Of a DNA stretch of 64,000 bases, positions 33,001-42,000 are shown in pieces. Position 1 is the first letter of the stretch. The number at the start of each line of letters is the position of its first letter. The position numbers were made by a program. The DNA is from Vulcanimicrobiota bacterium (lineage in GTDB: Bacteria > Vulcanimicrobiota > Vulcanimicrobiia > Vulcanimicrobiales > Vulcanimicrobiaceae), in assembly GCA_963723515.1 (NCBI GenBank), contig CAVRQT010000003.1, forward strand, positions 960,001 to 1,024,000. Direction: 5' to 3'.

Positions 33001-36000
33001 CGGCATGCAGTTCCTCAACGTCATCTTCGATATCGTGATCCTCTCCCTGCTCTTTGCAATCATCTACAAGTATTTGCCGAAGGCGGAAGTGTCGTGGAAA
33101 GACGTGCGGTTCGGCGCCGTGATGACGGCGGTACTTTTCATCATCGGTCAGTTCATCATTACACTCTACCTTGGCAAATTGAACGCCAGCTCGCCGTACG
33201 GGGATGCCGGAGCGCTGATCATTCTCTTATTGTGGGTCTATTATTCGGCGCAGCTGCTGCTCTTCGGCGCGGAGTTCACGAATGTTTGGGCTGAAAAGTA
33301 CGGCGACCGCATCGCGCCCGCCAGCTCGAAGAAACAAAGGAAGTAATCATACTTTACCGCTCGAGGGTAAAGAATCACTTTCGCATTCGGAGGTTGTGCA
33401 TGGCATCATACTTAGAACCGGTTTGGCAGTGATAAGCCTAGTGCTCCCGCTTCTTCTCGTCGGCGCAAAGCCTGCGGCGCATCAGCCGTCGCACAACAAG
33501 CAGATCATGCATCAGCTGGTCAAGATCAACATGGACCTCGACTTTAAGCCCCATCGGCGTTCTTCATTCGGCAAGCTGCAAGGGTACGACCCGGTTGAAG
33601 TTCACGTGCATCAGAACGACCAGATTCAATTCATCAACACGGACGATCAGGCACACACCGCCACAGGCATGTCGTATACCGGCCAAACTGCGCCTTCACA
33701 TTACCAATTTCACGGTGATCTGACCAAATCGCATGGGCGCATTATCGACTCGACCGAGTGGAGCACCGGCAATGTGCGCGCGCACGGCGGCAAGTCGCAG
33801 ATTTTCATCGCCAAAACCGTTGGGCATTATTTCTACGGTTGCGCCTACCATATCGGCAATGGCATGATGGGCGTCATCGTGGTCGGCCCGTAAAGAAAAA
33901 ACTAGACCGAAGAGCTACGCCGCAGCGGCGATTCGGTCGCGATCCTCTTCACTGAGCTCGATCGTCGCCGCTGCGACGTTTTCTTCAAGATGTTCAAGCG
34001 ACGAAGTTCCCGGAATCGGCAACATCAGGTTGCTGCGGTGGAGAAGCCAGGCGATTGCGATCTGATGCGGACTGACGCCCTTCTTGCGCGCAACCTCAGC
34101 GATTTTTTCGGCTTCCTGAATGTCTCCGGCGTCGAGCGGAAACCACGGGATGAAGACGATGCCATGGCGCTCGCACTCCTCTAAGACCCCCTCGGAATGA
34201 CGATCCGCAGCGTTGTAGCGGTTCTGCACCGAGACGATCGTCGCGACGGAACGCGCAATCGCAAGTTCTTCTTCGTTAACGTTGGAAACGCCGATGTAAC
34301 GGATCTTGCCTTGCGTTTGCAGGTCCCGTAGGGCGCCAATTTGCTCGCTGTATGGCACGGCCGGATCGACGGCATGCAATTGGTAGAGCTCGATGCAATC
34401 GAGCCGCAGGCGGCGCAAACTTCCTTCAGCGGCCTTCTTCAACTCGGCCGGGCGGCAGTCGCGACCCCATTGGCCGGGACCTGTGCGCGTCGAACCGCCT
34501 TTGGTTGCAATCACGAGGTCGGCCGGATACGGATAGAGCGCTTGCGCGATCTGCTCTTCATTAATATCGGGGCCGTAGGCGTTCGCCGTATCGATGAAGT
34601 TGACGCCGAGCGCGACGGCACGTCGCAACACCGCTAGCGCATTTTCAGGATCGGTGGGAGGTCCCCAGACACCCGGCCCGCACAGGCGCATCGCGCCGAA
34701 GCCGAGCCGATTGACGGTTCGTTCGCCGATCTGAATCTGACCGGCCGCTGCTGCACTGACTGCTGTTTCCATACGAGCCATTATGCCCGCAGAAGCCAGA
34801 AGGTTGCGCTTAGGTCGGCGTTCCGATGAACCGGATCACGAGCACGAGCAGACCCAAGCCAACCACACCCGCGATGAAGCCTTCGGCGACCGGACCAAGC
34901 TGGCCCAGCGAAAAACCGCCGTAGTTGTACGGTTGTGTCTGCAGCCAATTGACGTATCGCACGACATCGAGCAGATCGCGTTGCGGCAGCGTGCGTTGGT
35001 CAAAGCGCGGCATCTCTCCCGGTCCGACGCGAATCGCTTCGGCAACCTGTTCGACGCTGGCGTGCATCAGCGATGGCGCGTAGGCGCCATATCCGATCGC
35101 GTTGCCGACGCCTCCCGCACTGTGGCACGCCTCGCAATTGCTTGCGAAGAGCTCCCGCCCGCGCGGTAGATTGCCCGTATTGTCAACGTGTGGAATCGGC
35201 GGTCCGCCGTTCGTTCTTGCCGTAATGAATGATTCCAGCGCTTCGATTTGCCCGGCGTCGAACTTCGGCGGCTGACGAGCCGCTTGGCGCGTCGGATCCT
35301 CGACCGGCATGCGCCCCGTCGTCAGCATGAAGTCGACCGCCGCTGCACCCGATTGCTCGAGTGAGGGTCCTTGCGCCGTTCCTTTGAGATCGACACCGTG
35401 GCAGCTCGAGCAGTTCGTTTGATACAACACCGCCCCGCTATCGGCAAAGACAGGCGAGCGCAACGCGCACAGCATTCCAATCAAGAGCAAGAATCGTCGC
35501 GCGAGGGTCATCGGCTTTCTCGAACGAGCGCCCACAAGACGGCGAGCATCAAGACAAAGCCAACTACACCGAAGAACGGGAAGATGATGAAGCCGCCGAG
35601 CGTCAACGCGGCGCACACCGCAAGCAATATCGGCCAAGGGCTGCGCGTGGTGAAGATGCCGACGCGTTCTCCGGCTCCGTGATCGAGGCGCGCGGTTGGA
35701 TCATCCGCTGCGAGTTGCGCGCCGCGTTCGGCAAAGAAGACATAAACCGCGATGAATCCCATCGCGACAGCCATCAGCCCAAGGAGCAACAATCCGGCGT
35801 ATTCACGCGCCCATCCCCAGTAAATTGCTGCGACGACCGCACTGAAGACCAGCGACGATATGAACACTTGAACCGCCGCCTTCATGTGCTGTGCGCCAAC
35901 TCCGGATGTTTTGCATCGAAGACGGGCCGCTCCGAGCGAATAGCCGGGAGCGACGTGAAATTCAGCTTTGGCGGCGGCGACGTCGTGCCCCACTCCAAGG

Positions 36001-39000: not shown

Positions 39001-42000
39001 TGGAGTCTCGTCGACACCAGGACGACCCGAACGCACTGCAGGCGTCCGATTTAGACCTCAACGACGCGAGGGTGCCGCGCTATCGCCTTCTGCATGGTTT
39101 GCTCTACGGCGCGCTTGGCATGTTTGCCGTTGCGTTGCTCTTTCCGATTCGCTCGCTCGGCTCACGGATGACATCCGCTCAGAGCCGGACGGGTTGGGGC
39201 CGGGGTGTGCGCGTCGTGCGTTCTGACGGCTCGGCGGTGCACAAAGACGATCTCGAAGTTGGATCGATGGTGACCGTCTTTCCGCAAGGCGAGATCGATA
39301 ACGCAAATGCGCAAACAGTGCTGATTCATCTGGGAAGTGCAGCGGGTGAACTTCCGAACGGTCGCGCATCGTGGAGCGCCGCCGGCTATGTCGCGTTTTC
39401 GAAAGTTTGCACGCATGCCGGCTGTCCCGTCGGCCTCTATCGTTCAGCCGCAGCGCAGCTGCTCTGCCCGTGCCATCAATCGGTTTTCGATGTTCGAGCC
39501 GCGGCGCAGCCGATCTCAGGTCCGGCAGCAAGAGCGCTGCCGCAATTGCCGCTCGAGATTGCCGCGGACGGAACGCTGATCGCCGCCGGTGATTTTAGCG
39601 ACGCGATCGGCCCCGACCGCTGGAACTACCTGTGATCAAAGCGTTCGTTTTTTGGCTCGAGCGGCGAATCGACGCACATTCATGGACGAAAAAAGCGCTC
39701 GACAAAGCATTTCCCGATCACTGGTCGTTCATGCTCGGGGAGATCGCACTCTATGCGTTTCTGTTCTTAATCGCGAGCGGCACGTTCTTGGGTTTGCTTT
39801 TCGAGCCATCGGGAAACCGTGAGGTGTATAACGGCCCATACCAGCCCTTGCGAGGTGCGCACGTTTCCGGCGCCTTTGCATCGATCTTGCGACTCTCGCT
39901 CGAGACGCCGGCGGGTTTGCTGCTTCGGCAAGCGCACCATTGGGCCGCGCTGATCTTCGCCGGCGCGATCGTCGTCCACATGAGCCGCATCTTCTTTACC
40001 GGCGCATTTCGACGACCGCGCGAAATCAATTGGATCGTCGGCTTGACGCTCTTTTTGCTTGCGCTCGTCGCCGGCTTTACCGGCTATTCGCTTCCTGACG
40101 ACGCGCTCTCCGGTACCGGACTCAAAATCGCCCAAGCGATCGTGCTTTCCATGCCCATCCTCGGCGGTTGGGCGTCATGGATCTTTTTTGGCGGCTCCTT
40201 TCCGAATCCAAATGTGCCGGGACGGCTATTCTTCGAGCATGTCTTCTTGCTGCCGGCGGCAATTGCAAGCGCAATTGCGATCCATCTCTTCGTGATCTGG
40301 CGACAGAAGCACACGCAATTTCGAGCCGACGGGACGTTCCGAGAACAACGTCGTCGGCTCGCCGCTGTGGCCGAATTACGCACTGAAGTCGATCGGCTTG
40401 CTCTTTGCGGTGTCGGCGGTAGCGCTTTTTCTCGGTGCGTTCGTGCAAATCAACCCAGTATGGCTGTACGGGCCATACGTTCCATATCAAGTCAGTGCGC
40501 CCGCGCAGCCCGATTGGTTCGTCGGCTGGCTCGACGGCGCGCTGCGCCTTGGACCGCCGTGGCTCTTGCGCATTTCACATTACGCGATTCCGCCGCAGTT
40601 TTGGCCTGGCGTATTGATGCCGGCGGTGCTCTTTGCGCTGCTCTATCTCTATCCGTTCCTCGAAGCGCGCGCGATGAAGGACCGTAGCGCCCATCATCTT
40701 CTGGACCGGGCGCGCGACGCGCCGGTGCGTTCGGGGATCGGCTTTGCCGTTTTGGCATACGCGCTCGTGTTGCTGATGGCGGGCAGCGACGACATCCAAG
40801 CCCGCGTCCTACACGTTCCAATCGAAAGCTTCACGACGTTATATCGAGTCCTGGTCATCGTCGCGCCGGTACTGGCAGGCCTCATCGGCTATCGCGTTTG
40901 CAGGGAATTGCGCGCCCGCGAGCCGCTGTTAGCGGCGCACCCGCCGGCGGAACGGCTCGTACGCACCGCAACCGGCGGCTATGAGGAAGAGCCGGTGCGG
41001 CAATGATTGCTATCGTCCTGCTCTTGGGGTTTGAAGTAGCGTATGAGTTCGCGCTCGTGCGCTATAGACGGCGGTTTCCCGGCAAGCGAGTGCAATCTGC
41101 ATGGTTCTTCCGAGCCGGCATCTTCGCGGCTGCGGCACTGCTTTCTCCGTGGTTCGACCGTCTGGCGGACGCTTCGTTTTCTATCCACATGTTGCAACAT
41201 CTCGGCCTCATGCTGATCGTACCGCCGCTCATTTTAGCGGCTGGGCCGCTGCCCGTCTTCATCGCGGCGTTGCCCCACAAAGTGGCGCGGCTTATCGGCA
41301 AGGCATTTGGTGCCGGCCTCATCGGCGCGCTGCTCGGCTCCGCGGTGCTCGCCTGGTGCGCGTTCATTGCAGCGATGTGGGCAACGCACTATTCACCGCT
41401 GTACGATGCCGCGTTGCAATCCTCGAGCGGTCCATGCCCTCGAGCACAGCCCTCTATTTATTCGCGGCGATCTGGTTTTGGACACCAATCTTCGGAGCCG
41501 CTCCGGCGCACGTACTTCCTTATCCGGCAAGGACGCTCTATGTCTTCGCGTCGATTCCACCCTGGCGCTGCTCGGTTTTACGTTATACGCTGCACCGCAC
41601 GTGTTGTACGAGCACTACACGATCGTCAACAATCCACTGGGACTCTCGCCCATCGAAGACCAGCACCTTGGCGGCTTGATCATGTGGAGTGCCGGCGGCC
41701 TTGTGCTGTTCGTCGCGATGCTCGCCACAATCGTGGCCTGGCGCCGCCTTGACCTGATGAAGGCCGCCGCACTTCCGCAAGAAAGCTAACCCGACGCTAG
41801 GAGGCATCGATGAAGCGTCTTCTCTGGCCGGCTCTGCGCCAACTGAACGGCGACCCGCTTGCCTTAGGCAGGGCCGCGCAATCCGAGCATTCTGAAACGC
41901 TGGAGGCGCGCACGAAAAACGCCGACCGCGTCGTCAAATCGGTTTGTCCGTACTGCGCCGTTGGTTGCGGACAGAACGTCTACGTGAAAGACGAGCGCAT

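Follow-up and report, generated by a model that had tools for sequence, protein, structure and literature searches.

A compact actinobacterial-type bcc:aa3 gene set in a bacterium of the phylum Vulcanimicrobiota

The DNA analysed here (the window, a stretch of 64,000 nucleotides in whose positions all coordinates are given) belongs to a soil-type bacterium of the Vulcanimicrobiota (Eremiobacterota). Between positions 34810 and 41789 it carries two divergent groups of respiratory genes, qcrC-ctaF-ctaD-ctaC on one side and ctaE-qcrA-qcrB-ctaG on the other:

34810–35511, minus strand: qcrC, di-haem cytochrome cc (two CxxCH motifs) that has a single membrane helix at its C-terminus (NF050122, 208.9 bits; cut-off 200)
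35508–35885, minus strand: ctaF, oxidase subunit IV, a split-off part of subunit III (Pfam PF12270, E 1.2e-14, above cut-off)
35882–37510, minus strand: ctaD, A1-type oxidase subunit I (best model NF050116)
37507–38181, minus strand: ctaC, CuA subunit II without a cytochrome c domain and without the mycobacterial insert (best model NF050117)
38182–38238, no strand: intergenic gap of 57 bp separating the divergent starts of ctaC and ctaE, both start codons as predicted
38239–38805, plus strand: ctaE, short subunit III (best model NF050119; PF00510)
38810–39635, plus strand: qcrA, Rieske protein whose N-terminal part carries three membrane helices (best model NF050121), frameshifted near 38890–38900
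39632–41006, plus strand: qcrB, unsplit cytochrome b with the Qo motif PDW[YF] (NF050120 on both halves), frameshifted near 40320–40350
41003–41789, plus strand: ctaG, caa3-type, putative copper/oxidase assembly factor (PF09678 in two pieces), with at least two frameshifts after about 41420

The seven genes that an earlier note had read at this place (qcrC, qcrA, qcrB, ctaC, ctaD, ctaE and ctaF) were all found there, and its list had overlooked only the eighth, the caa3-type ctaG. The actinobacterial affinity that it had proposed for the set was borne out by all seven core proteins: the top NCBIfam match is an Actinobacteria-specific model for QcrC, CtaD, CtaC, CtaE, QcrA and both halves of QcrB, with the curated cut-off passed by QcrC only and the QcrB halves, taken singly, lying below it, while the seventh protein belongs to the CtaF family, whose PF12270 clusters in the ESM Atlas come from Vulcanimicrobiota and Actinomycetota. 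Subunit III is thus divided between CtaE and CtaF, each with its own open reading frame; open frames of about 700 codons at the CtaF matches had hinted at a fusion of CtaD with CtaF, which was ruled out, the frames being separate. The GC content of the cluster is in line with the rest of the window. The 57-bp gap presumably serves as a control region shared by the two groups, and a sigma-70 promoter consensus was not found within it.

At the level of sequence the catalytic residues of the set are intact. The two CxxCH motifs of QcrC and the lack of any in CtaC, both claimed earlier, were counted in the window proteins and recur in the family, with two motifs in 24 of 25 QcrC sequences (the lone exception is frameshifted) and none in 28/28 CtaC sequences; the native CtaC, for its part, has a fused cytochrome c in the 14 of 14 found, one genome being counted twice. 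One helix is predicted downstream of the second haem in every QcrC counted. The Cys, His and Met ligands of CuA are present in 27/27 CtaC sequences, the backbone ligand being Glu or Gln, and the PDB alignment passes over some 55 residues of the mycobacterial chain, with which the spacing table agrees. In the window copy of CtaD the GHPEVY motif and the residues of the D- and K-channels are present, and the A1-type signature as a whole (GHPEVY, D-channel Asp, K-channel Lys/Glu) runs through 25/25 CtaD and 27/27 CtaC sequences; the seven best PDB matches of CtaD are chains of actinobacterial supercomplexes. The top PDB matches of the set are actinobacterial throughout. QcrA likewise finds its best ones in actinobacterial QcrA, shows three predicted helices in 27/27 relatives (by hydropathy only), and has Ser/Phe and no Tyr near the cluster.

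In QcrB, for which residues are numbered as in Corynebacterium glutamicum and counts come from a residue table of family sequences, the haem His, Glu38, Tyr153, Pro-Asp-Trp, Arg306 and Asp387 are conserved in 27/27, and Asp/Glu302 and Glu453 in 26/27 each, with Glu453 present in the window. The Qo motif reads PDWF in the window and PDWY in 26/26 relatives. Glu453 is the residue that caps the entry of the oxidase D-channel in the solved supercomplexes, and the partner of that lid, His529 of CtaD, is His in 10 of 25 family sequences and Leu in the window, as against His in 57 of 65 named actinobacterial sequences. The "long QcrB" of the earlier note was right in that the protein is unsplit and retains the lid; its C-terminus, by contrast, is short, since beyond the Glu453 equivalent only 4–11 residues follow in 27/27 family sequences, versus 41–132 in 22 named actinobacterial ones. 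Of the C-terminal extension (about 102 residues at full length in C. glutamicum, where it docks on CtaDEF; PMC8795186), about 80 residues are lacking in the family. In the deep class of the Actinomycetota the tail past the lid has 0–30 residues; therefore, the full length of QcrB marks the Actinomycetes, and not the whole phylum. The predicted structure of the QcrB of a relative with an intact gene ends in a two-strand hairpin and superposes on 7q21_B of C. glutamicum with Z 47.4 and an rmsd of 2.2 Å over 425 residues; a complex prediction of a relative's QcrB with CtaE and CtaF (score 0.15, mark 0.32) is evidence in neither direction.

Set beside the actinobacterial bcc-aa3 supercomplexes (C. 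glutamicum, 7Q21/7QHM; Mycobacterium smegmatis, 6ADQ/6HWH), the locus, here known from its genes, encodes the same seven catalytic subunits: a di-haem QcrC with its C-terminal helix, a three-helix QcrA, an unsplit QcrB with a PD-type Qo motif and Glu38, Tyr153, Arg306, Asp387 and Glu453, an A1 subunit I, a CtaC without cytochrome c, and CtaE plus CtaF. The chains are nevertheless shorter, at about 455 residues against 535–556 for QcrB, about 220 against 312–363 for CtaC and about 275 against 382–429 for QcrA, and the set also differs in the variable His529 of CtaD, in the stand-alone caa3-type ctaG within the cluster, and in its diderm host, where further cytochromes c exist and bc/caa3, ba3 and bd systems run in parallel. 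As far as the protein sequences tell, this is a compact variant and not the mycobacterial or corynebacterial form. Of the accessory subunits (P29/LpqE, P20/PRSAF1, SodC or ThiX and others), none was seen among the genes that recur around the cluster, no search of whole genomes for them having been made.

Recurrence had earlier been put at about a third of the family, which proved too low: CtaF is present in 82 of 151 genomes, actinobacterial QcrB in 83 and both in 78, or about half, and the bcc and oxidase halves travel together, with both markers in those 78 genomes and a single marker in 9. PF12270 also partially matches long subunit I proteins in their C-terminal helices (frames of 620–650 codons), so that its tally of 73/81 was not used as a count of clusters. 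No CtaF over the cut-off was found in 72 genomes from the other 19 families of the phylum. The gene set is not unique to the Vulcanimicrobiota lineage, as similar clusters occur in two unrelated phyla besides, namely a second phylum (8/94; 16S genes are missing in three of its genomes, and RecA neighbours were used instead) and the Chloroflexota, in their Limnocylindria (16/101). Over the cut-off, the three non-actinobacterial phyla give 54/201 (in two families only), 8/94 and 7/251, with a patchy distribution in each. A record titled "Acidobacteria" was rejected as a fourth phylum; it nests among Actinomycetes, and the GTDB sample of its phylum has genomes in common with the actinobacterial class. 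The gene set was not found outside Actinobacteria in the literature searched, which took in neither supplements nor the principal distribution survey (Kao et al. 2016, BBA). Gene order is less constant than the earlier note had it, which gave ctaE and ctaC as divergent in 4 of 4 relatives: of 20 loci, 17 have them divergent and 3 in tandem. The ctaG gene adjoins the cluster at 19 of 20 relative loci, and the position of qcrC varies, being some 45–60 kb from the cluster at three of the 20.

A tree bearing on the direction of transfer, previously missing, has now been made, and it points to the deep class of the Actinomycetota as the probable donor. In the oxidase tree, obtained like its bcc counterpart by a short search without bootstrap and rooted on long outgroup branches, the family and the second phylum form a clade (98) which lies within a clade shared with that class (98), and the monophyly of the actinobacterial copies was rejected (AU p=0.006, the test being made after the tree was seen). 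The bcc tree is shaped alike, but its support is weaker. The clusters of the deep class, for which no characterisation was found in the literature searched, are the nearest neighbours in the trees, share the short QcrB tail and the CtaC spacing, and have ctaG beside them in 8 rows; they differ in their order, ctaE-qcrC-qcrA-qcrB-ctaC-ctaD-ctaF, with ctaG divergent. The set appears to be an ancient acquisition from a deep actinobacterial lineage.

The reading that we prefer, with a probability of roughly two in three, is that the eight genes encode a compact actinobacterial-type menaquinol:oxygen oxidoreductase, acquired from the deep Actinomycetota class and serving as an extra respiratory branch. 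The QcrABC dimer would perform the Q cycle, and electrons would pass from the Rieske cluster via the two QcrC haems to CuA in CtaC and from there to haem a/a3-CuB in what would be a proton-pumping A1 oxidase; CtaE and CtaF, as a split subunit III, would face QcrB, whose short C-terminal hairpin would cap the entry of the D-channel, and CtaG would assist in copper loading. The set would be expressed and its products would, we infer, assemble into III2IV2 (CIII2CIV2), as a self-contained addition to the native bc/caa3, ba3 and bd systems. It would have entered the ancestor of the Vulcanimicrobiota class and have then undergone patchy loss and reshuffling. The host indeed has its own bc complex beside this actinobacterial-type set, as had been claimed, and not two but three further oxidases (a caa3, a ba3-type and a bd). 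The idea that the set has taken the place of the native oxidase was rejected for most genomes, a second A-family subunit I being present in at least 27 of 31 CtaF-positive genomes among the matches listed. Passages of the description of V. alpinum give menaquinone as its respiratory quinone (PMC9758169).

The points counted against the preferred reading comprise the variable His529 of CtaD, the missing QcrB extension and CtaC insert, and the separate mono-haem cytochromes c of the host, which leave no pressure towards an obligate complex; further, the distant qcrC of three genomes, the PDWF and the three broken genes of the window, and the branching of the Chloroflexota copies outside all the actinobacterial ones.

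A more far-reaching proposal, which can be held only tentatively, is that of a minimal supercomplex, probably in an ancestral state, that has served as a transferable eight-gene cassette in at least three other phyla, in which a QcrB hairpin of about 10 residues would be the sole remnant of the III-IV lid, and in which, in a diderm host, a side entrance for electrons from a periplasmic PQQ alcohol dehydrogenase, by way of a lipoprotein cytochrome c, would have turned an obligate chain into a branched one.

Branching could also be conceived in a looser manner, with the enzymes not obligately joined but loosely assembled, or with an exposed cytochrome c site; a small lipoprotein cytochrome c, accompanied in some genomes by a PQQ alcohol dehydrogenase, would then feed QcrC or CtaC, and the set would act as a hub. 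In its favour, the mycobacterial insert is lacking from CtaC, and the genome of the window carries this small cytochrome elsewhere, near the ba3 operon. At 8 of 29 loci of the class the cluster contains, or is flanked by, a gene for a mono-haem cytochrome c whose leader is lipoprotein-like, a matching small gene adjoins the displaced qcrC in three further genomes, and a PQQ dehydrogenase of the methanol/ethanol family is found in or beside the cluster at 4 of the 29. However, the small cytochrome is not nearby at the other 21 loci, the same compact proteins are shared by the deep actinobacterial class, and the near-invariance of the lid glutamate makes sense chiefly if QcrB contacts the oxidase. 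Such a chain is unlikely.

As regards origin, the set could instead have arisen in, or passed through, the Limnocylindria or the ancestor of the Vulcanimicrobiota and the second phylum, and have entered the Actinomycetota once or twice. The Limnocylindria copies do lie outside all the actinobacterial ones in the rooted oxidase tree, and clear paraphyly of the deep class with respect to the family clade is not seen (an open fork in the oxidase tree; 80 and 92 in the bcc tree). Nonetheless, the patchiness of the set in all three outside phyla, the presence in the deep class of the closest caa3 paralogues whose CtaF is separate, and the greater number of events needed for a transfer into the Actinomycetota make this course distinctly improbable.

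The frameshift noted earlier in qcrB is present in this assembly and is not the sole break, as qcrA and ctaG are frameshifted too; in the relatives it is absent, one ORF spanning both halves at 20/20 loci. That the cluster is decaying here, with these three genes pseudogenised, or is mis-binned actinobacterial DNA, might be argued from the breaks, the PDWF motif and the Leu at His529, the long end branch of the window copy in both trees, and the lack of a match in the one congener searched (77% complete), but is very improbable, given that thrS, the native ctaD, ctaA and a bd subunit of the host genome are broken likewise, that the ORFs are intact in relatives, and that the same 1.08-Mb contig carries the host rpoB, which groups within the family. 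The breaks are probably assembly errors.

The obligate bcc-aa3 supercomplex has been described as characteristic of Actinobacteria, and is put down to the absence of a mobile cytochrome c in these bacteria (PMC8795186, PMC8361435). That the gene set occurs in hosts which possess further cytochromes c and a bc/caa3 of their own uncouples this actinobacterial hallmark from the missing-cytochrome explanation. The compact form also amounts to a natural deletion series, in which the lid glutamate is kept, the QcrB tail is largely gone, the CtaC insert is missing and His529 varies, allowing tests of which parts make the complex obligate and of a control of proton uptake by the lid. It further suggests a late, elaborated state for the solved structures. 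For the genomics of soil and permafrost, annotations of the phylum as having "caa3/bd" only overlook a respiratory branch in about half of the family.

More distant likenesses extend to the full-length cytochrome b of Deinococcus-Thermus and haloarchaea, placed in the same wider cytochrome b clade in the passages of PMC4122944 that concern it; controls from those groups gave weak matches to the QcrB model, below its cut-off, and CtaF was not found in them. The bc:caa3 supercomplex of Bacillus, according to passages of PMC9145763, shares the link between a menaquinol-oxidising bc complex and an A1 oxidase, and a caa3-type ctaG adjoining the oxidase genes, but makes the connection through a cytochrome c fused to subunit II and small anchored cytochromes c, where the present set has a di-haem QcrC and a haem-free CtaC.

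The actinobacterial-type bcc:aa3 gene set of the window is real and widespread, and lies in two divergent runs whose genes overlap or are closely spaced:

38181 down to 34810, minus strand: ctaC-ctaD-ctaF-qcrC
38239 to 41789, plus strand: ctaE-qcrA-qcrB-ctaG, divergent from the ctaC run

The Actinobacteria-specific NCBIfam model is the best one for QcrC, CtaD, CtaC, CtaE, QcrA and both QcrB halves (QcrC alone passes the curated cut-off), and CtaF matches PF12270; these matches bear out the seven genes listed in the earlier note, which had nevertheless overlooked ctaG, the last gene of the plus-strand run, matching PF09678 (caa3-type CtaG). 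Passages of PMC9145763 treat this family, tentatively, as a copper factor. Among solved structures, CtaD, QcrB and QcrA are closest to mycobacterial and corynebacterial supercomplex chains, and for CtaC such chains take four of the top five places. The GC content of the cluster shows no departure from that of the window.

Frameshifts interrupt the window copies of qcrA, qcrB and ctaG, and thrS (in the window) and the native ctaD, ctaA and a bd subunit (elsewhere in the genome) are likewise split; QcrB is a single reading frame in all 20 loci of relatives, and an assembly error is the likely source of the frameshifts in the cluster.

When residues are numbered as in C. glutamicum (passages of PMC8795186) and anchored by alignments, the four haem histidines, Glu38, Tyr153, Pro294-Asp295, Arg306 and Asp387 do not vary among 27 QcrB rows (the window's own and 26 from relatives); 26 of the rows have an acidic residue at position 302, and 26 keep Glu453, which is carried by the lid of the oxidase D-channel. 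Conservation extends to the ligands of the Rieske cluster and of CuA and to the residues of the D- and K-channels, and QcrA has three predicted helices in 27/27 rows (one genome twice). After Glu453 only 4–11 residues follow here, in contrast to 41–132 in 22 named actinobacterial rows; its partner position in CtaD, 529, is occupied by His in 10 of 25 rows and by Leu in the window's protein, and about 55 residues of mycobacterial CtaC are absent. A two-strand hairpin forms the end of the AlphaFold model of one relative's QcrB (pLDDT 85.6); the model superposes on 7q21_B with Z 47.4 and rmsd 2.2 Å over 425 residues, against Z of about 30 for other bc1 complexes; since alignments that take in the tail have rmsd 3.3–5.8 Å, the model does not fix the position of the hairpin. 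The main III–IV contacts named in passages of a review (PMC8361435), namely CtaE, CtaF and the QcrB loop, are all encoded in the cluster.

The set thus shares the catalytic features and subunits of the actinobacterial bcc-aa3 supercomplex, but lacks the full QcrB extension, and its host, having other cytochromes c, is not cytochrome-c-free. These two differences lead us to class it as a compact variant and not as an ordinary member; it would function like that supercomplex, through a putative assembly of the complex.

The native respiratory genes lie apart from the set. A Rieske/cytochrome b pair with a PAWY motif adjoins cytochrome c maturation genes (L200:6881-9023, on contig C2 of the window's genome, G000), and a terminal cytochrome c domain follows in another frame, probably a fusion interrupted by an indel. 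The host also has a caa3 oxidase with the subunit I motif YSHPAVY, which we take to be A2-type, a further oxidase, presumably ba3-type, as well as bd, haem A synthase and separate mono-haem cytochromes c. On the same contig (C2:123018-125862) a tandem pair of radical-SAM genes passes the TIGR00423 cut-off; the two would fit MqnC and MqnE of the futalosine route to menaquinone. That the host has an outer membrane is indicated by two genes of the window, one for a TonB receptor and one for an efflux pump with an outer-membrane domain. The claim that an actinobacterial-type set stands in a non-actinobacterial host beside its own bc complex and oxidases is upheld by the models, the PDB chains, the native PAWY cytochrome b, caa3, the ba3-type oxidase and bd. 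Among the matches listed, 27 of 31 CtaF-positive genomes (manual count) have another A-family subunit I, and the set is therefore an addition beside other oxidases. According to passages of the respective papers, the PAWY Qo motif is associated with acidophiles (PMC4122944), V. alpinum is a Gram-negative menaquinone user for which bc1, cbb3 and bd alone are listed (PMC9758169), and Eremiobacterota MAGs have caa3 and bd (PMC8357290).

A branched, non-obligate chain with a side entrance is possible. It is kept open by a mono-haem cytochrome c whose leader is lipoprotein-like and whose gene stands within or next to the cluster in 8 of 29 loci of the class (in three more genomes a matching small gene adjoins the distant qcrC), and by a PQQ alcohol dehydrogenase similarly placed in 4 of 29. 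In L031:1569-3777, L035, L036, L198 and L073:2514-4652 the dehydrogenase gene is inserted between ctaG and qcrC or adjoins ctaG, often with a small cytochrome c. Neither gene is present in the window; the copy of the lipoprotein-type cytochrome c in that genome is near the ba3 operon.

The compact set itself recurs in about half of the family: among 151 genomes, CtaF is found in 82, the actinobacterial QcrB in 83 and both in 78, each search listing seven genomes flagged as unpublished. In a sample of 201 genomes of the phylum, 54 CtaF matches exceed the cut-off, 51 of them in the family (of 113) and 3 in one other family of the class (of 15), while the remaining 19 families (72 genomes) gave two partial matches, both below it. 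Of 20 loci from 19 relatives, all hold ctaC, D, E and F with qcrA and qcrB, 19 hold ctaG, 17 hold qcrC (which lies about 45–60 kb off in the three genomes that lack it nearby), and in 17 ctaE and ctaC diverge. One family genome, G125, has two copies differing in gene order (C1 and C3; L050, L044), and G076 has two CtaF matches. A long-branched QcrB subgroup (L033, L043, L073 and L194, from G043, G147, a named record and G122) is shorter by about 17 residues in the loop that follows the first helix and by about 3 behind helix D; its PDWY motif is preceded by Val/Thr, and Arg stands in place of Lys253. About ten family genomes have similarly low QcrB scores.

Beyond Vulcanimicrobiota, CtaF occurs in 8 of 94 genomes of a second phylum, all eight with the full eight-gene cluster; the nearest named RecA neighbours (78–81%) carry the NCBI label Armatimonadota, one that often covers GTDB CSP1-3/Sysuimicrobiota and may do so here. 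In Chloroflexota, sampled around an unpublished genome, 7 of 251 genomes pass the QcrC cut-off and, in the class of the carriers, whose named neighbours are Limnocylindria, 16 of 101 pass that of QcrB; an even sample of Actinomycetota gave 58 of 201 passing. In Limnocylindria (L186-L190) ctaE lies elsewhere in the genome, and CtaF has a mid-protein insertion of about 25 residues. At least these phyla have the set, the search of named records covering 80 of 597 matches. L100 (G290), titled 'Acidobacteria bacterium', is not counted as a further phylum, its oxidase genes and GTDB phylum being actinobacterial and its label probably an error.

The cluster was probably transferred. An oxidase tree was built from CtaD and CtaC (51 selected rows), with the native caa3 of the family as root. 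In it a single clade unites the family with its sister family and the second phylum (SH-aLRT 98) and groups with two lineages from one deep class of Actinomycetota, that of G291 (98), the whole being sister to Acidimicrobiia and Actinomycetes (99), with Limnocylindria outside; a FastTree of 115 CtaD rows is concordant. Enforcing a single clade on 22 actinobacterial supercomplex-type rows is rejected (p-AU 0.006), and the QcrB, QcrA and QcrC tree (41 rows) agrees with it in shape, support on the deep forks being 80–92. The deep class also has caa3 paralogues in which CtaF is a separate protein, and a long-subunit-I form, and its clusters share the short QcrB tail and adjacent ctaG of Vulcanimicrobiota. 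On these grounds we give a probability of about 75–80% to one old transfer out of this class into the present lineage, and read the compact form as ancestral and the mycobacterial form as elaborated. Within the family, cluster and RpoB distances are correlated (Spearman 0.61 over 24 genomes, 0 of 2000 permutations) and the main subgroups reappear; the cluster tree contradicts 9 of 16 strong RpoB splits, so that there must be either later exchange or some error in the trees.

In Kao and Hunte 2014 (passages of PMC4122944), the full-length PD-type cytochrome b proved to be characteristic of Actinobacteridae and related to that of Deinococcus-Thermus and haloarchaea. The passages of PMC8239418 and PMC8357290 do not mention a bcc:aa3 set, and the main texts searched gave no report of a non-actinobacterial one, an earlier mention being possible; some Limnocylindria proteins already carry the actinobacterial QcrB name in NCBI annotation.

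Directly 3′ of ctaG lies a formate dehydrogenase operon (41810-46642, plus strand; alpha, 4Fe-4S subunit, NrfD anchor), near the cluster in just two other loci (L050, L196); its alpha subunit has NF041513 formate_DH_Act as best model and an in-frame TGA at 42362, a probable selenocysteine codon, the genome encoding a tRNA-Sec. A small cupredoxin (PF00127; 33282-33893, plus strand) is separated from qcrC by 900 bases, and a multicopper oxidase of two domains lies still more to the left (23680-24741, plus strand), neither seen to recur beside the cluster in relatives.

Finally, the class of G291 has caa3-type operons ctaC-ctaD-ctaE-ctaF with a separate CtaF (L226, L228-L231, L233, L234) and a ctaC tail of about 100 residues; Leu replaces the K-channel Lys in subunit I in 5/5, and Leu or Ile replaces the entry Glu in subunit II in 6/6, so that this would apparently be an oxidase without a K-channel, and possibly a precursor state. 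Long subunit I proteins (620–650 residues) have extra terminal helices that resemble the C-terminal half of CtaF, such CtaF-like tails being found in L235 and many partial PF12270 matches, a hint that CtaF may derive in part from the end of subunit I.
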